Assembly (NCBI GenBank): GCA_902797845.1
Contig: CADBUJ010000066.1
Coordinates: 1,399-65,398 of the forward strand
Length of the DNA stretch: 64,000 nt
Direction: 5' to 3'
DNA from: an uncultured Eubacteriales bacterium
GTDB taxonomy: Bacteria > Bacillota > Clostridia > Lachnospirales > Lachnospiraceae
A program made the position numbers and the translations under genes. Positions 17,196 to 49,830 of this stretch are shown in pieces (the stretch's first letter is position 1; the number at the start of each line of letters is the position of its first letter). The notes under the pieces were generated by a model that saw nothing but the letters and a program-made list of their open reading frames with translations, searched no databases and was not told the DNA's origin.

Positions 17196-18728
17196 TCAGC
17201 CCTGAAGCTTTTTAAGAGTCTGGAATACAGGATACATTCCGCCCTTTACGAGCTCCTGCTGTACCTCGTAAACTTCCTGGTATTTTGCAGTATTCTCTGC
17301 GTTGGGATCATATTCGCCAAGAACACCGAGTGTCTTTAATACGGTCTCGCCAAGGTCATCGATATCACCTACAGCATAAGCTGCAAGAAGAGCATCCACC
17401 ATAACGGCGCCTTCTTTTCTCTTCATGGTGGTTACGTGTGCATCAAGCATATCAGCCTTGATCTGATTCCAGAGATCAGACTTGGAACCGCCCTCTGTGA
17501 TGATAACTTCATCAACAGGGATGCCGTTTGCCTTAAGGGAATCTGTAAGTCCCTTGTATTCGTAAGCGATGGACTCAAGGAGAGCTCTCCACATTTCGCC
17601 TCTGGTGGTGTTCATGGTCATATTAAGGAAGCATCCGCTTGCACCGTCAAGTGTTCCTGTACCGCCTGTAAGATAAGGCATAAAGATAGTTCCGTTGGAT
17701 CCTGCAGGCACCTGAGATGCTTCTGCCTGGATCTCATCGTAGAAGCTGTTGTCGTCTACTCTTCCGCAGATATTGTCTCTGAACCAGCGAAGAGAAAGAC
17801 CGCCTGTTCTTATATAACCCCAGTAGAAATATGTATCGGGAAGAGTTCCGATGGAGAACAGAAGATCTGTGTTCTTTGTAAGATCCTCGTTGATGCCGTC
17901 AACCATTATGGTAAACATGGCAGCAGTTCCGGCAACGTCTGCAGCCATACCTGCCTTAACAAGTCCGCAGCCGATATTGCTCTGCATGGTGTCGCCGGCG
18001 CCGGCAGCAATAGGGATACCTGCGGGAAGACCCGTTGCAGCAGCAGCTTCTTCTGTAAGAGTTCCTATTATATCGTAGGGCTTAACGATCTTGGGAAGAT
18101 ACTCCATAGGGATCTCAAGCTCATCCATCTGTCTCTTTGACCATTCCTTCTTGATGGCATCATAACCGATAAGCCATCCTGAAAGAGTAGCCCAGTCTAT
18201 ACAGATATCGTCTGCCTTAAGGCCTGCCAGTCTTGAAAGAACATAAGGGCCGTTGTTGATAAACTTGGCGCCTCTCTCCTGGAAATCCTTATTGTTCTTA
18301 AGGAACCATCTTGCAATAAGGGGAGGATCAAAAGGATCAACAGCGTTATTTCCGCTTTCTTCAATCCAGTAAGGCTCGCAGTTTGCCTTTACCCACTCAG
18401 CATCCTCTGCACATCTGGAATCCAGATAAGGGATATAAGGAGTGATGGCCTTGCCGTCTTTGTCTACACCGAGGATACCGCAGATGATGCCGTCGCCTGA
18501 GATGGCGCGTACTTCGTTGGGATCGATACCGCTCTTGTCAAGGCAGTTCTTGATGCCCTTAAGTACGGAATCAAGATATTTGTCTGCATCCATTTCTGCC
18601 CAGCCTGCCTGAGGATAGCTTATCTCGGTGGGGATCATATCTTCTGCAACGCAGTCGAAGTTGTCGTTGTAGATAGTTGTTTTTGTACTCTGTGTACCAC
18701 AGTCAAAACCGATATAGTATTTGCTCAT
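17196..18728 (-). CDS. FGGY family carbohydrate kinase (xylulokinase-like)
   Basis: N-terminus YIGFDCGTQSTK and C-terminal TEGGSKSDLWNQIKADM are the FGGY signatures. 510 aa. Confidence 0.85.
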   Translation of the reverse strand: MSKYYIGFDCGTQSTKTTIYNDNFDCVAEDMIPTEISYPQAGWAEMDADKYLDSVLKGIKNCLDKSGIDPNEVRAISGDGIICGILGVDKDGKAITPYIPYLDSRCAEDAEWVKANCEPYWIEESGNNAVDPFDPPLIARWFLKNNKDFQERGAKFINNGPYVLSRLAGLKADDICIDWATLSGWLIGYDAIKKEWSKRQMDELEIPMEYLPKIVKPYDIIGTLTEEAAAATGLPAGIPIAAGAGDTMQSNIGCGLVKAGMAADVAGTAAMFTIMVDGINEDLTKNTDLLFSIGTLPDTYFYWGYIRTGGLSLRWFRDNICGRVDDNSFYDEIQAEASQVPAGSNGTIFMPYLTGGTGTLDGASGCFLNMTMNTTRGEMWRALLESIAYEYKGLTDSLKANGIPVDEVIITEGGSKSDLWNQIKADMLDAHVTTMKRKEGAVMVDALLAAYAVGDIDDLGETVLKTLGVLGEYDPNAENTAKYQEVYEVQQELVKGGMYPVFQTLKKLQG

Positions 18729-19385: not shown

Positions 19386-20699
19386 TTAATTTGTAAGTTC
19401 GAAGATTGATTTATTGGGATCATAAACTCCCCAGATATCAAGTGCAGCCTGAAGTTCAGGATGATCCTTGGCATATTCTCTTATGTCTATATCCTGAAGC
19501 CAGGAATCAGCTGCCTGACGAAGGGCCTCAACACCGGCCTTAAGTCCCATGGGATGAGCATGCATTGCTGCACCGGCACCAAGCATTACGTCGGGACCGA
19601 GGTCATCCATGATGGCGGGAACCATACCGGGATTAAGTCCTGCTGCAGGGCTGGGGAAGGTATTCTTCATGCCGTTGAACTCGGAGAGCATGCTCTGAGC
19701 GGAACGTATATATCTGTCCTTAAGACCGGGAACCTTTCCGTAAGCGCAAGGATAAACAACGATGTCAGCACCTTCAAGTCTCATAAACTTACCGAATACG
19801 AGAGTGGATGAGATACCGCCTGTGGGTGAAGTATAGCCTGCACCTGCGTAGCAGGGATGTGCAAGAAGCGGTACGTTGATGGAATCGTCTGCAGCCAGAG
19901 CGCCTGTAAGTCCGTAACCGGAAGCATGGGAGTTGATCATAAGTGCTCTTGCACCCATTTCAACAGCTCTGTGAGCCTTTTCCAAAGCTATATCCTGACG
20001 ATCGGTGATGTTGGGGATATAGATCGTGCGGTGACCTGTCTCCTCGTAAACTCTTTCAGCAACCTTCAGGCAGGCCTCAACTCTTTCATAGAAAGGAGCA
20101 TAAACGGGATCTGCAATAAGCTCGTCGTCCTTAACAAGGTCAAGACCGGCGCGGCACAGTTTTTCAAACTGCTTTTCGATTACGCTGATGGGGATACCTG
20201 TACAAGGCTTGATCATGGCAAGGACAGGAGGTCTGTCGATACATCCTGTAAGCTCTCTTATACCCTGAACGCCGAAGCGGGGGCCATGGAATCCGTCCGT
20301 GAATTTCTTGGGGAACTCCAGATCAAGGAGCTTAAGATCCTTACTCATTGAAATGTTACCGAAAACGGTAGATAAGAGCTCAGGGATCTGCTGTCCGATA
20401 TTCTCCCAAGGGAAAGCTATCTGCATGATAAATTCTCTTTCCTTATCGGGGCAGTCAAGCTCATATCCGGGTACGTTGTAAACAGATATAACTCTGCCTA
20501 CGTGACCTCTTCTGACTTCGTCTGTCTCGTCGGGTACACGCATCCAAGTACCGGTGGTCTGCTCTACAGCCATTGCTCCGGCACGCATAAGGATGTCAAC
20601 TGTTTCCGCCTTTGCCCAATAGGTTCCCACGATAAAGTCGTCCATGTTCAGGGATTCCCTTTGGCAAAAGATAATAGGATCATATTTTGCTTTGCCCAT
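19386..20699 (-). CDS. RuBisCO large-subunit family protein, form IV (RuBisCO-like protein)
   Basis: Aligns by eye to RbcL: LSTVFGN, IKPCTGI (vs IKPKLGL), GLDLVKDDE (vs GLDFTKDDE), GAGAAMHAHPMG (vs GGGTLGHPWG). The HR pair of RbcL (HIHRAMH) is HPCY here. No small subunit gene nearby. Confidence 0.85.
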   Translation of the reverse strand: MGKAKYDPIIFCQRESLNMDDFIVGTYWAKAETVDILMRAGAMAVEQTTGTWMRVPDETDEVRRGHVGRVISVYNVPGYELDCPDKEREFIMQIAFPWENIGQQIPELLSTVFGNISMSKDLKLLDLEFPKKFTDGFHGPRFGVQGIRELTGCIDRPPVLAMIKPCTGIPISVIEKQFEKLCRAGLDLVKDDELIADPVYAPFYERVEACLKVAERVYEETGHRTIYIPNITDRQDIALEKAHRAVEMGARALMINSHASGYGLTGALAADDSINVPLLAHPCYAGAGYTSPTGGISSTLVFGKFMRLEGADIVVYPCAYGKVPGLKDRYIRSAQSMLSEFNGMKNTFPSPAAGLNPGMVPAIMDDLGPDVMLGAGAAMHAHPMGLKAGVEALRQAADSWLQDIDIREYAKDHPELQAALDIWGVYDPNKSIFELTN

Positions 20700-34395: not shown

Positions 34396-34430
34396 AAAAG
34401 TGCCGGACTTACGACCGGCACTTTTATTTT
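34396..34430. terminator. Bidirectional intrinsic terminator between the lipoprotein gene and proC
   Basis: AAAAGTGCCGG-loop-CCGGCACTTTT with T/A runs on both sides. Confidence 0.75.
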
Positions 34431-34433
34431 CTC

Positions 34434-35234
34434 TTACATCTTTTTGCTTTTTTCCAGACAGGCCTCCATGCCTTCCTTTATTATTCCCTGAAGATCTCTT
34501 TCTGTAAAAACATTTACTGCCTCGATGGTGGTGCCTCCCGGGGAGCACACATTCTGCCTGAGCTTAAGAGGTGTTTCACCTGTTTCCGATACCATGGCGG
34601 CAGCACCCGTAACGGAAGTACATACGAAGGTCCTCGCCTCCTCCGGATCCATACCCTTTGAAACCGCAAAGTCCATCATGGCCTCTATTACCATATAGAT
34701 GTATGCAGGGGAGCTGCCGCTTACGGCAGTAACAAGATCCATCATGCTCTCTGGCACATTTATTGCCGTGCCGAAGCAGCTTAGGATCCTGCCTGCAAGA
34801 GCCTTGTCCTCTGCCGAAACATTATCTTTGCAGCAATAGCCGGTCATGCCCTTTCCAATAAGAGCAGGTGTATTGGGCATTGCTCTTATGAGCCTTATAT
34901 CCTTCTTAAAAAATTCCGTGATCCGTTCCGTGGTCTGGCCTGCGGCTATGGAGATAATAAGTGCATCATCCTTTATATGGTTACGGATGCCTTCTATAAC
35001 ATCACCAAACAAGCCGGGCTTTACGGCCAGTATAAGAATATCGCTTACCCGAGAAACGGCGCTGTTTTCCGTAAATGCATTTATTCCGAAGCTTTCCTTT
35101 AAAGATATAAGGGATCCCTCTGTTTTTACAGAGGCAAAAATGTTTCGGGCAGGTACCAGATCGTTTTTAATGATGCCGGAAACCATGGCTTTTCCCATAT
35201 TTCCGCAGCCTATAAATCCTATGTTCATGTGCAA
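34434..35234 (-). CDS. proC: Pyrroline-5-carboxylate reductase
   Basis: NADP fold IGFIGCGNMGKAM. C-terminal SPGGTTIEA motif. Confidence 0.9.
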   Translation of the reverse strand: MHMNIGFIGCGNMGKAMVSGIIKNDLVPARNIFASVKTEGSLISLKESFGINAFTENSAVSRVSDILILAVKPGLFGDVIEGIRNHIKDDALIISIAAGQTTERITEFFKKDIRLIRAMPNTPALIGKGMTGYCCKDNVSAEDKALAGRILSCFGTAINVPESMMDLVTAVSGSSPAYIYMVIEAMMDFAVSKGMDPEEARTFVCTSVTGAAAMVSETGETPLKLRQNVCSPGGTTIEAVNVFTERDLQGIIKEGMEACLEKSKKM

Positions 35235-35253
35235 ACTCCTTCAGTATGATAGA

Positions 35254-36189
35254 TCAGGTGCGACGTATGTTAGAGTCAAAAAACTTATTGTAGCCAAGCC
35301 ACGTATCTTCGGGCCGGGCATTATCAAGGGCTTCCTTAAAGGTCTGGGCTCTGGCATCCATGTTGTCAGCCATATGGAGTGCAAGGGCCTCGATAAGCTC
35401 CGGCTTCTTGGGAGAACCGTATTCCAGCTGACCGTGATGAGATGCTATGCAATGAAGGAACTCCGTTCTGAGGAGAGGCGGAAAGCCGTCTATCTTATCT
35501 ATCTCATGGCTTAACATATCAAGACCGATGATGATGTGACCCAGCATATATCCTTCGTCGGAAAAATCATTCTGGGGAAGAGCGGTAAGCTCCTTCGTTT
35601 TTCCTATATCGTGGCAAAGGGCGGAAGCCATTAAAAGATCCCTGTTTAAAAAATCGTAATGGCTGCTGTAGAAATCGCAGATGTCTGCCACCGAAACAGT
35701 ATGCTCCAAAAGCCCGCCCATAAAGCTGTGGTGGATGGTCTTTGCAGCTGAATGGGATGCAAAGATCCTGGCAAAGGCTCTGTCCTTTATAAATAGATTC
35801 TCGCAAAGCTGCTTTAAATGAGGCTCTTTTATGGAGTCTATATATGACATAAGGGCCTTGTAGAGGATGTCCCTGTCCTTATCCGTGGAAGGGATATAAT
35901 CCTGAATATTGTATTCTCCCTCCGATGCCTTTCTTACTCTTGTTATATTAAGCTGCGGAGCGTCTTTAAAGATCGTGACCGTGGCATCTACCTGAATAAG
36001 ATCCATGGGTTCAAAGCTTTCGATGGCATTGGTAAGATCCCATACCTTGCCGTCTATCTGACCTGTTTTGTCCTGCAGGACAAGGGCATAATAGTTCTTG
36101 CCGTTTTTTGCGATCTGCGTAAGCTTTGTTTTACAAAGGTATATTTCCCTGACGGAATCGCCTTCTTTAAGTGATGCTATCTCTCTCAT
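35254..36189 (-). CDS. yhaM: 3'-5' exoribonuclease YhaM-like (OB fold plus HD domain)
   Basis: ATG 36189 (MREIASLKEGD). OB-fold N-terminus. HD domain motifs HSFMGGLLEHT and CHDIGK. Confidence 0.8.
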   Translation of the reverse strand: MREIASLKEGDSVREIYLCKTKLTQIAKNGKNYYALVLQDKTGQIDGKVWDLTNAIESFEPMDLIQVDATVTIFKDAPQLNITRVRKASEGEYNIQDYIPSTDKDRDILYKALMSYIDSIKEPHLKQLCENLFIKDRAFARIFASHSAAKTIHHSFMGGLLEHTVSVADICDFYSSHYDFLNRDLLMASALCHDIGKTKELTALPQNDFSDEGYMLGHIIIGLDMLSHEIDKIDGFPPLLRTEFLHCIASHHGQLEYGSPKKPELIEALALHMADNMDARAQTFKEALDNARPEDTWLGYNKFFDSNIRRT

Positions 36190-36427
36190 TTTATCTCTGC
36201 CTTCTGTAAATCTTTTTGAAAATAATACAAATGGATTATAGCATAGGGCCGACGCAGGCAAAAGTGCTGTACTCACAAAGTGGGGGTATCAAAGCTGTCT
36301 GAAAGGCTATGTGCATGAATAGGGAAGCCCACATCATCTCTACATCATTTCTGGTGGCATAAAACATGAAAAATGTAATTTATAATTACAATATTTGTAA
36401 AAAAAATACAAAAAACGAGAAAATAAA

Positions 36428-36456
36428 TTGACATTGCGATTTAAGAATGCTATTAT
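36428..36456 (+). promoter_or_regulatory. Consensus sigma-A promoter driving the AT-rich island
   Basis: TTGACA, a 17-nt spacer, then TATTAT with TG at the extended -10 position. AAAGGAGGAGG RBS follows before ATG 36482. Confidence 0.6.
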
Positions 36457-36481
36457 TCGTACACAAAGGAGGAGGCTAGGA

Positions 36482-37738
36482 ATGCTTTTACAATTTAACG
36501 TTTCAAATTTTATGTCAATAAAAGATGAAATTACGCTAACAGCATTTGCAAATGCAAGCAAAGAACATGAAGATAGTTTAATTATTTGTGGAAAAGAAAG
36601 GGTATTGCCCACTCTTGCGATTTACGGGGCGAATGCTGCCGGTAAATCAAATATTTTCAAAGCCTTGACAAGGGCTATTATGCTGGTTCGTCTATCTAAC
36701 AATTTGCAAATCAATTCTCCGACAGGATTTGAACCGTTTTTGTTTGATGATAAATCTAGGAATGGTAAAACCAAGATAGATTTTCTGTTTTATCACAATG
36801 GAAAAAAATTTGAGTATGGATTTACGGCTGATAGACAGTACATATATGAGGAATACTTGTATGAATATAAGACGTCGAAGCCAACAATGATATTTGAGAG
36901 AACAAATATCAAAGACTTTAAGTTCACGACGGCATATAAGGATTTAGCGCAATACAAAGGGAAAAATACATCCAATAAACTATTTATGTGTACGGCAACT
37001 GCATGGAACTGCAAAGCAACAAAAGATGCATTCCTATGGTTCTCAGAAAGCATTGATACATATAATAAGTTTTCTTTTGATGACACGGATCAATTACTAG
37101 GTTATTTAGATATTCACAAAGATAACCCAGAAACAAAGAATTTCATGTTATCTTTACTTAAGCATGCAGAAATAAATATTCAAGATTACGAATTTGAATC
37201 ACAGGTAGTGGAGAATCCAAGCATACCATTACCACCGGGGATTACGATTGATCAGGCTTTATTTGGCGAGATGAAGCGATTTCGTCTAGAAACGGTACAC
37301 CAGATTGAGGATGAGAAAGGTAGATTTCAATCATATAGATTAAATTATGATCATGAATCAGAGGGGACTAAGAGATTGTTTGCTTATGGTCCTATTATCA
37401 TGGATGCATTGAAAAAAGGAAGAACAATAGTTATTGATGAAATTGACAATAGTTTACACACAAATTTGACTAGGTATTTGATAGGATTATTTAATGATTT
37501 AAGTGTAAATAGGAATGGAGCACAATTAATATTTAATTCCCATGATGTAAGCCTTCTTGATTTAGATTTGTTAAGGAGGGATCAAATCTATTTTGTTGAA
37601 AAGAACAACAAAACAGGGGTTACAGATCTTTATTCGCTGGCTGATTACTCTCCAAGGAAAAATGAGAATATTCAAAGGGGATATTTACAAGGCCGTTACG
37701 GAGCAATCCCGTTTATTTCTGGAGGGATTGAATGGTAA
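36482..37738 (+). CDS. ABC-type AAA ATPase (AAA_21/AAA_15-like, AbiLi/RloA-like)
   Basis: Walker A GANAAGKSN, signature-like ESEGTKRLF, Walker B IVIDEIDNSLH, H-loop FNSHD. No TM or nuclease domain. Confidence 0.8.
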   Translation: MLLQFNVSNFMSIKDEITLTAFANASKEHEDSLIICGKERVLPTLAIYGANAAGKSNIFKALTRAIMLVRLSNNLQINSPTGFEPFLFDDKSRNGKTKIDFLFYHNGKKFEYGFTADRQYIYEEYLYEYKTSKPTMIFERTNIKDFKFTTAYKDLAQYKGKNTSNKLFMCTATAWNCKATKDAFLWFSESIDTYNKFSFDDTDQLLGYLDIHKDNPETKNFMLSLLKHAEINIQDYEFESQVVENPSIPLPPGITIDQALFGEMKRFRLETVHQIEDEKGRFQSYRLNYDHESEGTKRLFAYGPIIMDALKKGRTIVIDEIDNSLHTNLTRYLIGLFNDLSVNRNGAQLIFNSHDVSLLDLDLLRRDQIYFVEKNNKTGVTDLYSLADYSPRKNENIQRGYLQGRYGAIPFISGGIEW

Positions 37739-38358
37739 AAAGAATTAAGAAAGTAACAAAAAATAGGGCAACACGTAGACGGAAAAAACTTATCATTATA
37801 GGGACAGAAGGGTTCAATAAAAGCGAAATACTCTATTTACATGAACTTGAGAAAAAACAAGAAGAGTATCATTTCCTGTTTGCACATGGAAACGAAACAG
37901 ACCCGGTTAAAATAGTGCGAAATACGGAAAGAATGGCTAGGATTGAAGAAATATCATATGAGGAAGGAGATATGGCTTTTAGCCTTTTTGATTTGGATTT
38001 AGATTCAGCAAAGGAGAAACAGCTAAAAAAAGCAAAGGAATTAGCTTTAAAGAATAACATCAAACTGATAACATCCAATCCATGTTTTGAAATATGGTAT
38101 TTGCAACACTTTGGATTTACTAGCAAGCCATTTGCAAGTTGCAATGCAGTTGTGAAAGAGCTTTTAAAGAAACTTCCCAAATATCAGAAGAATTACTGCG
38201 ATATTGATACGTTTTATCCACTGACAGAAGAAGCAATCTATAATTGTAAAAGACTAATTGAATTCCATAAAAACAATGGGGTAAGAAGTGAATTTGCTAA
38301 CCCAATAACGGGTGTGTATAAAATAGCGGAAATACTCTTTCATAAGGAAGATGTATAA
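37732..38358 (+). CDS. RloB-like (Toprim/OLD-related) protein, AbiLii-like
   Basis: Overlaps the ATPase stop by 7 nt. N-terminal KLIIIGTEGFNKSEILY (cf. RloB CEGxxTE) and C-terminal SNPCFEIWYLQHF (RloB signature). Confidence 0.7.
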   Translation: MVKRIKKVTKNRATRRRKKLIIIGTEGFNKSEILYLHELEKKQEEYHFLFAHGNETDPVKIVRNTERMARIEEISYEEGDMAFSLFDLDLDSAKEKQLKKAKELALKNNIKLITSNPCFEIWYLQHFGFTSKPFASCNAVVKELLKKLPKYQKNYCDIDTFYPLTEEAIYNCKRLIEFHKNNGVRSEFANPITGVYKIAEILFHKEDV

Positions 38359-38601
38359 AAAAGTTTAACGAAACCTTCGACTACTGATGAGCTCTGAAAG
38401 GGGGTGATAATAAATTGATTAGCAAAAGAAAAGCACCAAATGATTGCTGGAACAATCAACTTGGTGCAAGTCTTCGAATGGAATTCATTCGTTGTTGTAC
38501 GAAGATGATAACAAAATTCGGAGACATTTACAAGAAAAATTTGCCAAGGAAACAAGCTATGTGCATAACAAAAAAATGTTTTCGAAAGGAGAATATTATC
38601 T

Positions 38602-39354
38602 TTGGAAAAAAATAATAAATTTAAGAAAATTACAAATAATTATGTCAGAACCCTGTTCCTTTCATATCTAGTGGAGGGGGCAGAATGGACGAAACCAGAT
38701 GGATATCCAATTATTGAAAAATGGATGGTGGCAGATAATCCACCAAAGGAAGCTTTTCAGTGGGATTGCAGGCATGAAGCGATTGAGCCAGAAATAACAG
38801 GGATGTCCTTTTACTGCAGAGATGAGAAGTTCACTCCGATATTAAATAATCCCCGCAATTATGTGGATAAACTATCTAAATATGAATGTATTATTGGTCT
38901 AGATGCAAGTCCCTACGACAATATGCCATTGGCAGTTCAGAAAAGCCAGATCTATACCAATCTTGCAATTACATATTTCTTTGGAGCACAGGGATTGAAA
39001 GTAATCCCCAACATCAGGTTGGGAAATGACAAAACAATCGGGATGCTAGATGCCATACCAAAAGAGTGTTTAATAGCAGTAGGTACAAATGGCTTTATGC
39101 GCAATATTGAAACCAGAAGAATATTTCGAAATCAAATGGCGATAGTTGTAGATGCACTTCGACCCACTGGTATTATCGTGTATGGTCCGGCATATGATTA
39201 TGTGTTTCAATCTGCGATTGATTCAGCAATACCTATTTATCAATACGATTCCCATACCATGAAACGTAATGCCGAAATACATTCGAGGACAAGAGCAAGA
39301 AAACGGAAGGCTAAGTCTAACACAAAGTTAGAAGGTGAATGTATTGAAGGGTAA
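38602..39354 (+). CDS. DUF4417-like protein
   Basis: TTG start after AAAGGAG (an in-frame GTG at 38671 is also possible). FYCRDEKF...IGLDASPYDNMPLAVQKSQIYTN...GLKVIPNIR recalls DUF4417 from memory. AT-rich codon usage matches the island. Confidence 0.45.
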   Translation: MEKNNKFKKITNNYVRTLFLSYLVEGAEWTKPDGYPIIEKWMVADNPPKEAFQWDCRHEAIEPEITGMSFYCRDEKFTPILNNPRNYVDKLSKYECIIGLDASPYDNMPLAVQKSQIYTNLAITYFFGAQGLKVIPNIRLGNDKTIGMLDAIPKECLIAVGTNGFMRNIETRRIFRNQMAIVVDALRPTGIIVYGPAYDYVFQSAIDSAIPIYQYDSHTMKRNAEIHSRTRARKRKAKSNTKLEGECIEG

Positions 39355-39715
39355 TTGGCCTGGCTTTTCTGGTGCGAGATTAGGAGGGAAACAGGATGGC
39401 GATGGCGGATATATTAATGGTGAAGATTATAATTCTGCAGGCTCAAGCAGCGTTGGGAAAGTTGATTCAATTACAACATTATCTAATGTCCATTCTGTGC
39501 CCACCACATCCGACCCAAATTCAGTCACAAAGAACTATAAGGACGGAAAACTAAATAGCGAAAGATATTACGATGAAGATGGGAATGCCTATTTAGATAT
39601 TGATTATAGTAACCACGGGAACCCATGGACTCATCCACAAGTACCGCACGAACACAGCATATCATTTGATGAAAACGGCAATATGCATAGAGGAAAGGAA
39701 AAGGATATAGAATAA
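39335..39715 (+). CDS. Glycine-rich protein ending in a YD-repeat-like/His-rich module, possibly an orphan polymorphic-toxin C-terminal fragment
   Basis: GTG start only, overlapping the DUF4417 stop. No signal peptide. SERYYDEDGNAYLDIDYSNHGNPWTHPQVPHEHSISFDENG. Confidence 0.3.
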   Translation: MNVLKGNWPGFSGARLGGKQDGDGGYINGEDYNSAGSSSVGKVDSITTLSNVHSVPTTSDPNSVTKNYKDGKLNSERYYDEDGNAYLDIDYSNHGNPWTHPQVPHEHSISFDENGNMHRGKEKDIE

Positions 39716-39960
39716 TGACGAAAGAATTACTAAAAGAATACGTTGATTATGGCAGAGAGATTGAGTTCAAATACAACGAAAAAATGTATTCGATTACGTA
39801 TAGTCCTGCAGATCAAGACGATTATATTTCATTTTGTGAGTTCTATAAGGAGCCAACTAATGTCAAAACATTTGATGAGCTACTTGAAATATCTCGTGAG
39901 GGGGTAACGGTGCTTCAAATGTGGGAAGATCTTACTGAGGATAATATTTGGATATATTAA
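39715..39960 (+). CDS. Small acidic protein, immunity-protein-like
   Basis: 81 aa. Its ATG shares one nt with the upstream TAA (TAATG coupling). No recognisable motif. Confidence 0.3.
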   Translation: MTKELLKEYVDYGREIEFKYNEKMYSITYSPADQDDYISFCEFYKEPTNVKTFDELLEISREGVTVLQMWEDLTEDNIWIY

Positions 39961-40252
39961 TAAGTGAAGGGTATGGAAAATAAGAAAATGTGATGATCGG
40001 CTTAGAAAGATTCCTACAAGGGTAAATAAGTGCTCGATACATTGGGAGCACAATACGAAAATCATTAAAGAGTTAATCTCTGCAATATATATGTTACCGA
40101 TAAGGACAAAGGGAAAAAGTTGGAATATTCATAATAAAATATGGCTTCGAAAATATATCTCGGTTATTGAATGATGAAAATAGATATAGGTTCGGGCTGA
40201 TAACCGCATGATTCTATAAAAACCGCGTTATGTGCAGGCGCTTAATCAAAGC

Positions 40253-42625
40253 ATGATAAACGAAAAAAGTCTTATAACACTGGAATTCAATAAAATACTG
40301 GAAAAGCTGGAGGCATATGCTGCATCCCGGGAGGGAAAAAAGAAGTGCCGCAGTCTTGTGCCTTTTACAGAGATCGGGATGATCGAAAGATCCCAGCAGG
40401 AAACGGAAGACGCGCTGAGCCGCATTATAAAGAACGGAGCCCCGTCCTTTTCGGGATTAAAGGATATAAAAGGAGAGATCCTCCGTCTTCAGCTGGAGGG
40501 AGCCCTGTCACAGAAAGAGCTTCTTGATATAGCATCATCAATGGAGACAGCCTGCAGGGTAAAGGCCTATGGAGGTACGCCTGAAGAAGGAGAAGAACCT
40601 GACAGCCTTCAGGAGTATTTTGACGGGCTTTTCGATCTGGGCCATGTATCCAGGGAGATAGGAAGATGCATTATCTCAGAAGACGAAATGGCTGATGATG
40701 CATCATCTGCCCTTAAGGATATACGCCGGAAGATGAAGAATGCCGGAGAAAAGATAAGGGTAGAGTTAAACAGGATATTAAGCAGGGAAGCCTCTGCAGG
40801 GACTCTTCAGGAAAACATCATCACCATGCGAAGCGGGAGATACGTAATACCCGTAAGAGCAGAACATAAGAGCAAGATAAGGGGACTGGTGCATGATCAA
40901 TCTTCATCCGGATCCACTGTGTTTATCGAGCCCATGGCAGTAGTGGAGCTTAATAACGAGATACGGGAGCTGGAATCAAAGGAACTTGAGGAGATAAACC
41001 GTATCCTCAAAAAGCTGTCGGAAATGGCCGCAGAATACAAGGATGAGCTCCGCTATAATCTGGAAAACCTTACGGAACTGGATTTTATCTTTGCCAAAGG
41101 GCATTATGCAAAAGAAACGGAAGGCATAAAGCCTTCCTTTAATACAATAGGTACCATTCTTCTTAAAAAGGCAAGACACCCTTTGATCGACAGAAAAAAA
41201 GTGGTTCCCATCGATATGATGCTTGGTGAGGACTACAGGATGATGATAATAACCGGCCCCAACACAGGAGGAAAAACAGTTTCCTTAAAGACCACAGGGC
41301 TTTTGTGCCTAATGGGTCAGGCGGGCCTGCATATACCTGCGGGAGACGGCTCCAGCCTGTTTCCTTTCAGGGATATCTTTGCAGACATAGGGGACGAGCA
41401 GTCCATCGAGCAGAGCCTTTCAACTTTTTCATCCCATATGACAAATCTTGTAAAGATAATAAATGATGCAGACAAAAATTCTCTTGTACTGCTGGATGAA
41501 CTGTGCTCCGGAACGGATCCCACTGAGGGAGCTGCTCTCGCCATGGCTATGCTTAAAAATTTCCTTATGCGGGAAGTAAGAGTAATAGCAACGACTCATT
41601 ACAGCGAACTTAAGGTCTTTGCCCTTTCAACTAAAGGAGTAATAAACGGAAGCTGCGAATTTGATGTGGGAACACTCAGCCCCACATACAGACTTCTTAT
41701 AGGTATACCAGGTAAGAGCAATGCCTTTGCCATAGCAGAGAAGCTGGGACTTCCCGGCTTTCTTATAGATGATGCCAGAAAACGCCTGGATTCGGAGGAT
41801 GTGGCCCTGGAGGATGTCATATCCGAACTGGAGGATAAAAGGACCAGAATAAATAAGGATCTTACGGAAACGGAAAAAGCAAAGCTGGAGGCCGAAAAGC
41901 TTCGTGATGCCCTGAAGAAGCAGGAGGAAAAGATCGAAGACCGCAAGGAAAAGATAATTTCCGAGGCCAAAAGAGAGGCGGCAGAGATCCTTAAAAAAGC
42001 AAAGGATACTGCGGACAGCACAATTAAGGAGCTTAATAAGCTTGGAGCCGCAGACGGCAGGAGCCTTGAAAGGATAAGGGGAGAGCTCCGGGAGGAGCTT
42101 GATAAAGTATCTGAGAAGAAGGCCCTTGGGGTAAAGAGAACAGGAAAGGAATTTACGGAGAAGGATGCTGCGATAGGAACATTTGTTAAGGTCCTTTCCA
42201 TGAATACAACAGGCAGGATAATAGGACGCCCCAACAAGGCGGGAGAAGTAGAGGTCCAGATGGGAATAATAAGGGCCAATATTAAGCTTACGGATCTGGA
42301 ACCTGCCGCGGAGCAGGAGATCACAGGCCCGAGCATCAAGGGGACCGGAGCAGGAAGGATAAGGATGCAGAAAACATCCTCCATCTCGTCTTCCCTTAAT
42401 CTTATAGGCCTTACAACGGCAGAAGCGCTGGGAGAACTGGACAAATATCTGGATGATGCTTATCTTTCCAGACTTGAATCGGTACAGATCGTTCACGGAA
42501 AGGGCACGGGAGCCTTAAGAAATGCGGTGCATAAGAAGCTTAAGGAGACATCCTTCGTAAAGGATTACAGGCTTGGCAATCCCGGAGAGGGAGATGCGGG
42601 AGTCACCATAGTTACATTTAAGTAA
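40253..42625 (+). CDS. mutS2: Endonuclease MutS2
   Basis: Walker A GPNTGGKTV, DELCSGTDP, long coiled-coil, and a C-terminal Smr domain (IVHGKGTGALR). Confidence 0.9.
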   Translation: MINEKSLITLEFNKILEKLEAYAASREGKKKCRSLVPFTEIGMIERSQQETEDALSRIIKNGAPSFSGLKDIKGEILRLQLEGALSQKELLDIASSMETACRVKAYGGTPEEGEEPDSLQEYFDGLFDLGHVSREIGRCIISEDEMADDASSALKDIRRKMKNAGEKIRVELNRILSREASAGTLQENIITMRSGRYVIPVRAEHKSKIRGLVHDQSSSGSTVFIEPMAVVELNNEIRELESKELEEINRILKKLSEMAAEYKDELRYNLENLTELDFIFAKGHYAKETEGIKPSFNTIGTILLKKARHPLIDRKKVVPIDMMLGEDYRMMIITGPNTGGKTVSLKTTGLLCLMGQAGLHIPAGDGSSLFPFRDIFADIGDEQSIEQSLSTFSSHMTNLVKIINDADKNSLVLLDELCSGTDPTEGAALAMAMLKNFLMREVRVIATTHYSELKVFALSTKGVINGSCEFDVGTLSPTYRLLIGIPGKSNAFAIAEKLGLPGFLIDDARKRLDSEDVALEDVISELEDKRTRINKDLTETEKAKLEAEKLRDALKKQEEKIEDRKEKIISEAKREAAEILKKAKDTADSTIKELNKLGAADGRSLERIRGELREELDKVSEKKALGVKRTGKEFTEKDAAIGTFVKVLSMNTTGRIIGRPNKAGEVEVQMGIIRANIKLTDLEPAAEQEITGPSIKGTGAGRIRMQKTSSISSSLNLIGLTTAEALGELDKYLDDAYLSRLESVQIVHGKGTGALRNAVHKKLKETSFVKDYRLGNPGEGDAGVTIVTFK

Positions 42626-46563: not shown

Positions 46564-49500
46564 ATGCTCAGACGACAGGAAGTACATCCAAAAAAACATA
46601 TTATGTTTATATTGGTGATCACATTGACACTTGCCATGGTCGCGGGTACTGGAGATCTATCTTATGCAGCAGAAGACAGCAGCTGGCAGAATGACTGGAC
46701 ATATACGACTCAGGCCTCTGCAGACCCGCAGACTATCACACTTACAAAATATAACGGCAGCGAAACTGACTATAAGATACCTTCGACAGCAGTCATAGGA
46801 GGAGTGGAATACAAGGTCATCCTCGGAGGCGGCGGTATCAGAGGCAGCAGTATAAAGAACATATCCTTCGAAGAAGGTGTAAAGATAAACAACGGGAACA
46901 GCTCCGCTTCGCCTTTCAACAACGCGACGAATCTTGAGACAATAGATCTGAGAGGCGCAGATCTTTCTTCAGCCACCAGCATGTATTATATGTTCAGCGG
47001 CTGCAGCAATGTAACAGAGATCAATATGAGCGGGATCAAGGTTCCCGGTGTCACTGACGTCAGATACATGTTCAGGAACTGTTCAGCCCTTAAGAAACTG
47101 GATATGAGCGGCGTGGACTTAAGCGGTGTCAGCGGCAGCGGCAATGTAAGATATATGTTTTACGGAGCAACGGCAATAGAGGAGCTGAGCTTTGCCAATG
47201 CTGACATGAGCAAAGTTACCAGCTTTGCTTATTCAAACCCGACAAATAACTTTTCACCCAGTCCTCTTCATGGCATGCAGGCACTTAAAAAAGTGGATTT
47301 CAGTAATTTTGACACATCTTCACTGACCACTGCTCAGCGCATGTTCGTAATAGACGGCAACAACTATGACAATAAAAACCGTCTGGAAGAGATCGATGTG
47401 ACCGGATGGAAGACACCGTCAGTCACACAGTTCTACGACACATTTATGCACTGCGGAGAAAATGTTGACTGTGTCATCAAGGGCCTTGAGACCATGGATA
47501 TATCTTCGGCCACAAGTCTTGTAGGCATGTTCTCCACATGTATAAAAGTGGCGGACTTATCAGGCGTGGAAAGCTGGGATGTTTCGGGAGTGAGTGATAT
47601 GACCAGAATGTTCCAGGAGTGCGAGTCCATTACCTCTCTGGATCTGAGCGGCTGGAATACGGAAAGCCTTACGAGCCTGTCAAATACCTTTGCGGGCTGC
47701 ACATCTCTTACAGACATAAATGTAAGTACGTGGGACACCTCCAAGGTTTCAGATATGCAGCAGACTTTTCTGGGATGTACATCTCTCGAAAAGCTGGATC
47801 TTTCAAGCTGGACATCCGACGGCATCACCAGGGGCTATAACATGAACGAATTCCTGGGCAAGGCCGGGACGACATCCAGCTCGGATATGGGTACTGCTCC
47901 CCTTAAGGAGATAACTCTTCACAAGGATTTCAAGTTTTATACAGATACGCCTGTGGGCCTCCGTGGTGGTTACTGGAATCTCAAGCAGGGAACGGATGCT
48001 CAGGTGGCAAAGAGATATTCCACAGCAAGGCTTTATACACAATATAACGAAAGAAAGACACCGGATTTTGAAGACGGCTACGAATACAGCCATACCTGGG
48101 TCCTTTCGGTACTGGATCCTGCCGAGGCAAATTATTATGCCAGAGGCACCGGAGAAGAAAATGTATGGGAGGTTCATTATCCGGACGACAAGTTCAAGGG
48201 ATACTGCATCAATCTGCACAGAGCCGGACCCAACGGTTATTATGACCGTGTGATCGTAAAGGACAATGAGATCGTGGATGTGGGGTATATAGACAGCGAG
48301 AATTACGGCTGGGAGCCCCTTGGAAACAACATGGAAGAGGCTTTTATAACCCTTATATATTACGGCTGGGGAAATGATGCAGACGGGATCCAGGCGAAGT
48401 ACGGATTAAGCGATTCCCAGTTTATGACTCTTACCCAAAGGCTTATATGGGATTTTTCCGACCGCTACGATACAATTGAAGAACTGCCGGAAGACAGCGA
48501 TATCAATAAGGCATATAACGAGCTTCTTTCAAAAAGATTTGCAGATATTCCGGATAACGAGAACCTTAAGCTTTATCTGTACGAATCCATTGACGGAAGA
48601 CAGAACCTGCTTTCCATAAGCGGACTTAACAATAAAGCCTATGCAGGCGTCAGAGTCCTTAAGCTCGTGGATAAGGAGGACGGAGCAGAGCCTCTTAAGG
48701 GCGCAATATTTACCGTATTTGATGAAGACGGTGCAAACGTGGCAACTATCGTTTCCGACGATGACGGTTATGCCACAAAGTACAATACAGATTCCATATA
48801 CGGTCTTCCCCAGGGCATCTACACCATAAGAGAGACCACACCGCCCAGAGGATATTCCAGAAGCGGCAACGATTATTACACGTTCATCGTCCGCGAAGAG
48901 GATGACAATACCATCATTACCGTAGGTAAATTACAAGGCTCCGGCGAAGACGTGGGCATGATATTTACCAATGTGGAAAGCACAAGTGTGACCGGCGGAG
49001 GAGTAGCCATCGAGAAAAAGAATGATGCCGGGGATCCTGTTATAGGGGCAACCTTCGAGATCACAGACAGTTCGGGGACTGTTGCGGCAGAGCTGGTTAC
49101 CGGTCAGGGAGGAAAGGCATCGACGGGAAACAAGGACCTTCCTCTCGGCACATATACCGTAAAAGAGATCTCCGCACCGGAAGGATATATAGCGGACACT
49201 ACACCTAAGACCGTAACGCTCACCGAGAACAAACAGGTGGAGACTGTCAGCTTTGTAAATACAACTAAAAAAGGCAGCGCAAAGATAGAGGCCAAAAAAG
49301 AGTATAACGAGGCCTTGGAAGGCGGTGAGTTCAGCTTCCGTCTTCTGGATGATATAACAGGTGAAGTAGTGGCCGAAGCCGTCAATGACAAAGACGGAAA
49401 TATCATATTTGATATGAGTTATAACGGAACAGAGATCGGATACAAGGTATACGATCTTGAGGAAGTAAAAGGCGATTCGGATGAGATCACTTATGATGCT

Positions 49501-49830
49501 CATAAGGAAGAGATCATCGTATATATTTCCGACGATGGCAGTGAAGAGCTTGTAACAAGCGTGGAATATGATGACGACGGCGCGGTGTTCAAGAATCACA
49601 GGGAAAGGAAAGAGGAAGAAACGGAGAAAGAAGAGGAACCTTCTTCGGAAAGCGAGAGCAAAGATGCTCCGCCTCCTGCCGACGATAAAAAGGATCCCCC
49701 TGAAAGGAAGGGCGATATACCGGCATCAGGTGATACGGCGGATACGGGTCTTTACCTGGCAGTGATGCTGACAGCACTTTTAATTACCATTGCATCATCA
49801 GCAGCAAGGATGAAAAGAAAAAACAGATAA
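46564..49830 (+). CDS. Cell-surface adhesin: signal peptide, BspA-type leucine-rich repeats, Cys-Gln thioester domain, SpaA/CnaB-type Ig folds, C-terminal sorting signal
   Basis: Repeats of the LxxIDLSxxDxSxVTxMxxMFxxCSxL type. Thioester motifs GYCINLH (Cys codon 48205-48207) and TQRLIWDF (Gln codon 48436-48438). LPQGIYTIRETTPPRGY and LPLGTYTVKEISAPEGY. IPASGD plus TM plus RMKRKNR tail. Confidence 0.8.
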   Translation: MLRRQEVHPKKHIMFILVITLTLAMVAGTGDLSYAAEDSSWQNDWTYTTQASADPQTITLTKYNGSETDYKIPSTAVIGGVEYKVILGGGGIRGSSIKNISFEEGVKINNGNSSASPFNNATNLETIDLRGADLSSATSMYYMFSGCSNVTEINMSGIKVPGVTDVRYMFRNCSALKKLDMSGVDLSGVSGSGNVRYMFYGATAIEELSFANADMSKVTSFAYSNPTNNFSPSPLHGMQALKKVDFSNFDTSSLTTAQRMFVIDGNNYDNKNRLEEIDVTGWKTPSVTQFYDTFMHCGENVDCVIKGLETMDISSATSLVGMFSTCIKVADLSGVESWDVSGVSDMTRMFQECESITSLDLSGWNTESLTSLSNTFAGCTSLTDINVSTWDTSKVSDMQQTFLGCTSLEKLDLSSWTSDGITRGYNMNEFLGKAGTTSSSDMGTAPLKEITLHKDFKFYTDTPVGLRGGYWNLKQGTDAQVAKRYSTARLYTQYNERKTPDFEDGYEYSHTWVLSVLDPAEANYYARGTGEENVWEVHYPDDKFKGYCINLHRAGPNGYYDRVIVKDNEIVDVGYIDSENYGWEPLGNNMEEAFITLIYYGWGNDADGIQAKYGLSDSQFMTLTQRLIWDFSDRYDTIEELPEDSDINKAYNELLSKRFADIPDNENLKLYLYESIDGRQNLLSISGLNNKAYAGVRVLKLVDKEDGAEPLKGAIFTVFDEDGANVATIVSDDDGYATKYNTDSIYGLPQGIYTIRETTPPRGYSRSGNDYYTFIVREEDDNTIITVGKLQGSGEDVGMIFTNVESTSVTGGGVAIEKKNDAGDPVIGATFEITDSSGTVAAELVTGQGGKASTGNKDLPLGTYTVKEISAPEGYIADTTPKTVTLTENKQVETVSFVNTTKKGSAKIEAKKEYNEALEGGEFSFRLLDDITGEVVAEAVNDKDGNIIFDMSYNGTEIGYKVYDLEEVKGDSDEITYDAHKEEIIVYISDDGSEELVTSVEYDDDGAVFKNHRERKEEETEKEEEPSSESESKDAPPPADDKKDPPERKGDIPASGDTADTGLYLAVMLTALLITIASSAARMKRKNR

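Follow-up and report, generated by a model that had tools for sequence, protein, structure and literature searches.

An AbiL-family ATPase–RloB gene pair in a low-GC island of a Lachnospiraceae genome, and the DUF4417 cassette that adjoins it

The subject of this analysis is a pair of genes in a 64,000-nucleotide stretch of DNA from an uncultured Eubacteriales bacterium of the family Lachnospiraceae (assembly GCA_902797845.1, contig CADBUJ010000066.1, positions 1,399 to 65,398 of the forward strand). The whole of this stretch is called the window below, and its coordinates are used throughout. The two genes are intact and co-oriented, and encode an ABC-type ATPase of 418 amino acids (aa; 36482-37738) and a RloB-family partner of 208 aa (37732-38358). 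By their motifs and profile matches they almost certainly belong to the AbiL family. We consider it reasonably probable that they form a two-gene abortive-infection module of toxin–antitoxin character, in which the ATPase restrains the RloB nuclease, and which was acquired horizontally together with the island of DNA in which it lies. The family assignment by hidden Markov model (HMM), the intact motifs, the operon signals, the conserved pairing of the genes, the mobile-element context of their relatives and a number of mechanistic precedents all argue for such a defence module.

The gene pair and its expression signals

The features of the pair are as follows.

36482..37738, plus strand: AbiLi-like ABC-type ATPase, 418 aa, with Walker A at G49-N57, signature at S293-G295-T296, Walker B at D319-E320 and H-loop at H354.
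37732..38358, plus strand: AbiLii-like RloB protein, 208 aa, presumed metal-dependent nuclease effector, with candidate catalytic residues E26, D87-x-D89 and E120.
36428..36456, plus strand: predicted sigma-70-type promoter of the AbiL operon, with TTGACA, a 17-nt spacer and a TG-extended TATTAT.

The longest open reading frame (ORF) called for the ATPase runs from 36428 to 37738 on the plus strand. The in-frame ATG at 36482 (MLLQFNV...) yields the 418-aa protein and is the start common to all homologues. It is preceded 8 nt upstream by AGGAGG, whilst the RloB ATG at 37732 has GGAGGG 6 nt upstream. The two genes overlap by the 7 nt ATGGTAA (37732-37738), an arrangement which is retained in relatives, with overlaps of 7 nt in loci L001-L009 and of 13 nt in L013-L019. 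The predicted promoter matches the consensus at 11 of 12 positions, is the top-scoring site within 36200-40300, and lies inside the module, homology to other AbiL loci beginning at 36377. One predicted promoter serves both genes, and the overlap couples their translation. The initial annotation of this DNA, made from the sequence alone, had described the 418-aa ATPase and its 208-aa partner with the 7-nt overlap, and the reading frames and sequence confirm this along with every motif that it quoted: GANAAGKSN, ESEGTKRLF, IVIDEIDNSLH and FNSHD in the ATPase, and IIIGTEG..NKSE and SNPCFEIWYLQHF in RloB.

Assignment to the AbiL family

Profile searches place both proteins firmly. The ATPase matches Pfam AAA_21 with 113.9 bits against a gathering cut-off of 27, and the PADLOC model PDLC02335 (AbiLi) with E 2.6e-89 and 297.5 bits over residues 1-413. 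The partner matches Pfam RloB (PF13707) with 107.2 bits against a cut-off of 31.5, over model positions 1-195 of 195, and PADLOC PDLC02337 (AbiLii) with E 1.6e-15. The earlier proposal of a split ATPase–RloB pair of AbiL/Rlo type, for which a failure to match AAA_21 or RloB had been named as the refuting outcome, is borne out by strongly positive results with all four models, the two Pfam matches (E 2.1e-32 and E 1.6e-30) being far above their cut-offs. Since the AbiLi and AbiLii models both match, an annotation run of the PADLOC type should label the pair AbiL, as an intact copy of that catalogued system. No specific NCBIfam model was found for the pair.

The ATPase is of the ABC/SMC type, with every catalytic motif intact. 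Across 18 relatives (26-86% identity) there is no variation at residues G49, N51, G54, K55, S293, G295, T296, D319, E320 and H354. The most variable stretch lies between the lobes, at about residues 150-290, and corresponds to a helical insertion. Compared with the PDB, the single ATPase sequence found no match, and the family profile gave marginal matches confined to the C-lobe: the AAA ATPase 9n69, the OLD nuclease 6p74 (E 8e-4) and PtuA. The C-lobe likewise aligned weakly with P2 Old in hhalign (E 5e-4).

Recent literature (2024-2026) groups AbiL with PARIS, OLD, MADS, Gabija and class 3 retrons as systems which combine an ABC ATPase with a Toprim protein (PMC11464382 Fig. 6c; PMC12409363; 10.64898/2026.07.10.737580; PMC13064643). 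The pair resembles the AbiLi/AbiLii genes of the Lactococcus lactis plasmid pND861, as represented by the PADLOC models, in having a gene for an AAA_21/Rad50-like ABC ATPase followed by one for a RloB protein of about 200 aa, and in its mobile-element location. It differs from the pND861 system in being chromosomal, in belonging to a rumen or gut member of the Bacillota, and in the DUF4417 cassette which lies downstream. A further parallel is found in the NetFlax toxin–antitoxin network, where an AAA-ATPase antitoxin node (D29) is paired with a RloB-like node (D44) or with TOPRIM_OLD toxin nodes, giving the same domain pair. The validated NetFlax representatives, however, had a TOPRIM_OLD toxin where the partner here is RloB, and the specific proteins differ.

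Four other systems of related architecture were considered and rejected. PARIS shares with the pair a split arrangement of ABC ATPase and small nuclease, and its ATPase AriA is the second-ranked PADLOC match of the ATPase (E 7e-33, far behind AbiLi). The effector here, however, is RloB (PF13707) and not DUF4435/AriB: no AriB model matches the partner, whose only matches are AbiLii in PADLOC and RloB in Pfam, and on the ATPase the AbiLi model outscores AriA by a wide margin. P2 Old and the class 1 OLD proteins, which confer prophage-borne abortive defence, also combine an ABC ATPase with a presumed Toprim nuclease. They are nonetheless single polypeptides, whereas two separate reading frames are present here, each with its own start codon and ribosome-binding site. 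Gabija was set aside, there being no helicase in the island and no GajA among the 25 best of 37 PADLOC matches. So too was Septu, for which the PtuA matches are marginal (E about 1e-4) and the partner is RloB rather than HNH.

The RloB partner

RloB proteins form a large family, with 2,915 representatives at 50% identity having E <= 1e-3 and 557 having E <= 1e-10. Among 73 diverse relatives (27-52% identity), E120 and W122 are invariant, and conservation reaches 90% or more at E26, D57, D80, D87, D89, H126 and K153. An AlphaFold2 model of the protein (pLDDT 90, pTM 0.84) contains four parallel strands, at residues 19-25, 46-51, 81-87 and 111-116. In this model E26 stands directly after strand 1, D87-x-D89 ends strand 3 and E120 follows strand 4, an arrangement of strands and acidic residues which agrees with the layout of the Toprim domain. 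The layout sought, namely a Glu after strand 1, an Asp-x-Asp after strand 3 and a four-stranded parallel sheet, is present in full, and the conserved Glu and Asp-x-Asp are modelled where a Toprim metal site would be.

Searched against the viral structure library BFVD with Foldseek, the model has a single significant match, a RloB-like phage protein (E 1.5e-7). Matches to the DnaG-Toprim and topoisomerase folds in the same library lie at E about 0.03. The single RloB sequence found no match in the PDB. Judged by sequence profile, it appears that no structure of the RloB family has been solved so far.

Relatives of the pair and their decay

Relatives were sampled by a scan with the ATPase, at one genome per species, which gave 26 loci. 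Most are from rumen or gut Lachnospiraceae, Erysipelotrichaceae and Clostridia, with a few from Proteobacteria and Bacteroidota. A RloB gene lies directly 3' of the ATPase gene in about 22 of the 26. Relatives of the pair are also found on 181 plasmids and, at moron or hotspot positions, in a P2-like Klebsiella phage between the replication and portal genes, and in the Lactococcus prophage proPhi7, where they lie after the lysin gene and are annotated as abortive phage resistance proteins. A contig with a relative of the pair (L016) holds in addition a second, divergent ATPase and RloB pair (123-1653), which lies upstream of the main pair at a distance of about 9 kb, with 27% and 36% identity to the proteins of the window.

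Four of the relatives have decayed, with the ATPase intact in each. RloB is frameshifted in L007 (11248-11900), reduced to a stub in L010 (11239-11382), and absent from L011 and L012. In L011 (11276-11531) the ATPase gene stands immediately 5' of a DUF4417 cassette, and in L012 RloB is missing after 11242. This loss of RloB with retention of the ATPase resembles a toxin-like asymmetry, in a sample drawn through the ATPase only; as every locus was located in this way, the opposite decay, in which RloB is kept and the ATPase lost, could not have been seen.

A mosaic island

The pair lies in an island of 3.6 kb (36377-39960) with a GC content of 34-38%, compared with about 45% in the flanks, which sits between a yhaM-like HD/OB gene and mutS2. 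The region 36377-38355 has 68-75% DNA identity to other AbiL loci, and this homology stops at the RloB stop codon. The region 38399-39960 has 66-73% DNA identity to loci which are free of AbiL. On these homology boundaries two modules make up a mosaic: the AbiL pair is the left half of the island, and the junction falls between 38358 and 38399. No flanking direct repeats, tRNA gene or integrase were found at the island. An empty site, with yhaM next to mutS2 and no island between them, was sought in public data in two ways: an exact-protein look-up gave only a contig which also carries the island, and scanning metagenomes for the yhaM-like protein turned up four loci, all distant and uninformative. 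No empty site having been found, the insertion of the island is read only from its GC content and its homology boundaries.

Proposed function of the pair

An anti-phage role for the pair is likely. The mechanism that may be envisaged draws on PARIS AriA/AriB, on a preprint on P2 OLD, and on the published toxin–antitoxin pairs of AAA ATPase and Toprim proteins. In PARIS, a hexameric ATPase, AriA, sequesters the Toprim protein AriB, which cleaves tRNA (PMC11464382, PMC12409363), and P2 OLD was reported as a tRNase in 2026 (10.64898/2026.07.10.737580). The NetFlax study showed in toxicity-neutralisation assays, which did not include phage data, that AAA ATPase antitoxins neutralise TOPRIM_OLD toxins, and separately linked its RloB node to OLD_TOPRIM by HHpred (PMC10440598). 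By analogy, the AbiL-like ATPase would oligomerise and keep the RloB nuclease inactive. Its variable helical insertion would sense a phage-derived trigger, and an ATP-dependent rearrangement would then free or activate RloB. The released nuclease might cut host tRNA, or less likely DNA or other RNA, so that translation stops and the infection is aborted. The odds that the pair follows such a sequester-and-release logic seem to us about even, and the proposal that tRNA is the target of RloB is a tentative one. The initial annotation had held that neither trigger nor target is established for this subfamily, and the literature agrees in describing the mode of action of AbiL as open (PMC11464382, PMC13064643). 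A 2026 review likewise treats it as an open question whether AbiL, RloAB and pairs like them operate as PARIS does (PMC13064643).

Several observations weigh against this interpretation. The assignment of RloB as a Toprim nuclease is not reproduced by fold or profile searches. Foldseek with the RloB model found nothing in the PDB below E 1e-3, its generic Rossmann-like matches lying above E 2e-3. Profiles built from 45 and from 73 RloB sequences matched no solved structure in the PDB, and neither of them aligned with the Toprim half of P2 Old in hhalign. The same review reports a poor superposition of AbiLii on AriB when their predicted structures are compared (PMC13064643), and the PARIS mechanism may for this reason not transfer to AbiL. 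The pair is also distant from the one lactococcal pair that was compared: against ORF55/56 of proPhi7, an annotated prophage pair and not the validated AbiL of pND861, the ATPase is 28% identical and RloB aligns over 55 residues only. Finally, with a DUF4417 cassette recurring downstream, the pair may not be acting by itself.

Among the alternatives, the foremost is that the pair is chiefly an addiction module, a type II toxin–antitoxin system with RloB as toxin and the ATPase as antitoxin, which stabilises the island and has no meaningful role against phages. The NetFlax pairs of AAA ATPase and TOPRIM_OLD, validated as toxin–antitoxin systems (PMC10440598), are precedents for this, and the loss of RloB from decayed pairs which keep the ATPase is in line with it. 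For an island which lacks an integrase, a tRNA gene and flanking repeats, post-segregational or anti-deletion selection would moreover be a plausible means of persistence. However, the founding AbiL was first described in 1999 and was found through a phage-resistance phenotype, as the 2026 review cites it (Deng 1999, cited in PMC13064643), and relatives of the pair hold defence hotspots of P2-like and lactococcal prophages. The two roles are in any case compatible, PARIS being both. An addiction role at the expense of defence is unlikely, and abortive infection remains the preferred reading of the pair.

The adjacent DUF4417 cassette

The right half of the island holds a second module, which was not found described in the literature searched and is more novel than the AbiL pair. 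Its features are the following.

38602..39354, plus strand: DUF4417 protein, 250 aa, matching Pfam DUF4417 with E 9.5e-31.
39335..39715, plus strand: protein in the toxin position, 126 aa, Gly-rich at the N-terminus and His-rich at the C-terminus; its gene overlaps the DUF4417 gene by 20 nt and is translationally coupled to it.
39715..39960, plus strand: protein in the immunity position, 81 aa, acidic, with no family match in Pfam or PADLOC.
38427..38498, minus strand: predicted small RNA of about 72 nt, with a 5' hairpin, a terminator hairpin (38467-38433) and a U-tract.
38533-38505, minus strand: predicted promoter of the small RNA, TTGTAA-17-TGtTATCAT, TG-extended.

The order of the protein genes resembles that of polymorphic toxin and immunity genes. 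What occupies the toxin position varies between loci, the C-terminus of the protein being variable: it is EndoU_bacteria in L007 (E 1.2e-17) and PBECR1-like in L003 (E 1e-4), while other loci have small proteins of no common kinship there. Each toxin-position gene is followed by one for a small protein. The 126-aa protein of the window has a weak match to Ntox24 (E 0.016), below the cut-off. In the family of this protein Ntox24 matched in 2 of 10 members, only below threshold, and an assignment as an Ntox24 toxin was not upheld. The 81-aa gene takes the immunity position in L035-L039, L045-L049 and L054, and homology of the cassette ends at its stop codon. The DUF4417 protein has no PADLOC match, and its AlphaFold2 model (pLDDT 81) resembles TIM-barrel folds (EAL, PdxJ, aldolases) only weakly, with E values above 5e-3. 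There is almost no literature on DUF4417 beyond its fusions to ParB-CTPase folds in phages.

Cassettes are present in the window (38602-39960, plus strand) and in L001, L003, L004, L007, L009, L011, L033-L039 and L045-L054. In at least five chromosomal contexts without AbiL, the DUF4417, ~125-aa and 81-aa genes follow a pair of genes for an XRE-HTH protein and an M78 peptidase; in L045 and L054 the three cassette genes precede this pair instead. The XRE and M78 pair matches capH/capP of PADLOC, and RmrA, and one such cassette adjoins the candidate system PDC-S27. In Streptococcus phages, a DUF4417 gene with an overlapping small gene for a His-rich protein stands just before terS. One of these, phage phiNJ2 (L030, 2824-3875), has DUF4417 followed by an overlapping gene for a 127-aa His-rich protein, the C-terminus of which resembles that of the 126-aa protein in the window.

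The predicted small RNA has a minimum free energy (MFE) of -27.2 kcal/mol with a z of -5.9. A unit of promoter, two hairpins and U-tract, with an RNA of 61-79 nt, lies upstream of 10 of 12 DUF4417 cassettes, the stem sequences differing whilst their pairing is kept. A detector for such units, run over 1.13 Mb of strand sequence, returned 25, 12 of which were those at DUF4417 cassettes. The RNA has no match in Rfam at E <= 1. Covariation analysis (MAFFT with an RNAalifold consensus) recovered the apical stem only, since the lower stems do not stay in register from one subfamily to another, and support for the RNA is taken instead from the folds of the individual sequences and from the detector control. 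No consistent trans target was found in the cassette leader (z -5.2 to +1.8). The DUF4417 promoter seems to stand back-to-back with that of the small RNA.

The same leader shows, on the plus strand at 38396-38615, a conserved Shine–Dalgarno-like GGnGGTGAT and a start codon, opening a short ORF which runs antisense through the predicted small RNA. This ORF has 66 aa in the window and 27-33 aa in L033, L035 and L037, and the peptide K-A/S-P-x-D/N-C-W-x-N recurs in five loci. It may be coding, or may reflect a constraint at the RNA or DNA level only. As the principal account of the conserved leader, a plus-strand riboswitch-like element or small ORF was rejected, the ORF being absent from L009 and L011 and in another frame in L004.

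The recurrence of this cassette beside AbiL is the basis of a further alternative, in which the island is a composite system. AbiL would here be the sensor and first effector, working with the divergently transcribed small RNA, with DUF4417, and with a polymorphic toxin of nuclease type and the immunity protein that belongs to it. Sensor modules would be interchangeable, AbiL taking the place of a CapH/CapP-like pair. Within the close clade (>=53% ATPase identity) 7 of the 11 informative loci have the cassette downstream of AbiL, even though identity of the DUF4417 proteins to that of the window and to one another is just 27-38%, and L011 retains the ATPase and cassette without RloB. The window's own type of cassette stands elsewhere directly after the XRE-HTH and M78 pair, so that one two-gene sensor module is swapped for another at this point. 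On the other hand, the two halves of the island, with the junction between them, have separate histories, and the cassette appears to carry its own back-to-back promoters. AbiL pairs stand alone in the remaining informative loci, in phages and on plasmids, and genes in defence islands often lie together without being functionally coupled. A composite is quite doubtful. More probable than this, if still somewhat short of an even chance, is that the small RNA, DUF4417, toxin and immunity genes by themselves constitute an unrecognised defence or toxin system which merely travels with AbiL.

Neighbouring genes and remaining alternatives

To the left of the island lie the yhaM-like HD/OB gene, proC (identified through Pfam in L029) and ZnuA, with sigma-factor-like and VWA-like ORFs recognised by eye only. 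Beyond these come genes for an aminotransferase, VanW, a RuBisCO-like protein and an FGGY kinase. On the other side of the island mutS2 is followed by genes that include those for an LD-carboxypeptidase and a surface adhesin, with rumA-like and TraX-like ORFs again by eye only. In the part of the window that was scanned, from about 17 kb to about 54 kb, neither Pfam nor inspection by eye revealed an hsd gene among the neighbours examined. Within that scope, the earlier remark that the pair is not next to hsd genes stands.

Two of the remaining explanations of the pair may be dealt with briefly. In view of the decay of several relatives (L007, L010, L011 and L012), it might be taken for what is left of a defence module that is decaying and no longer works, but this is very unlikely given the full-length frames, the intact catalytic motifs, the near-consensus promoter and ribosome-binding sites, and the identical copies of parts of the island on independent metagenome contigs. 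Least credible of all is that the pair serves a type I restriction-modification locus as an accessory of the RloA/RloB kind: the Pfam RloB match is shared with the Campylobacter genes inside hsd loci from which the family was named (PMC10440598, PMC13064643), but the neighbours examined here are housekeeping or cell-surface genes and none is hsd.

Three observations on the surroundings are recorded here. The contig L029 is 99% identical to the window over 34408-36747, the match ending beyond proC (L029 2341-3384, compared with the window around 34408); the break next to the island suggests a strain-level rearrangement. Some distance to the left, genes for a RuBisCO large-subunit-like protein (19386-20699, minus strand) and an FGGY-family sugar kinase (17196-18728, minus strand) lie about 650 bp apart, and the former, in an organism that seems to be a gut anaerobe, probably encodes a RuBisCO-like protein with a role outside the Calvin cycle. 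To the right, a surface protein of 1,088 aa (46564-49830, plus strand), probably a covalent adhesin, has DUF285/LRR, thioester (TED), SpaA and FctA isopeptide domains.

Significance

The pair is a compact, intact representative of AbiL from a rumen or gut member of the Bacillota. It adds one locus to a family of thousands, and as such changes little. The cassette alongside it, with its own predicted small RNA, recurs beside AbiL, beside damage-responsive regulators of the CapH/CapP type and beside a candidate system of PADLOC. If this cassette is a defence or toxin system, the loci linked to AbiL and those linked to CapH/CapP would provide a natural pair of genetic backgrounds.

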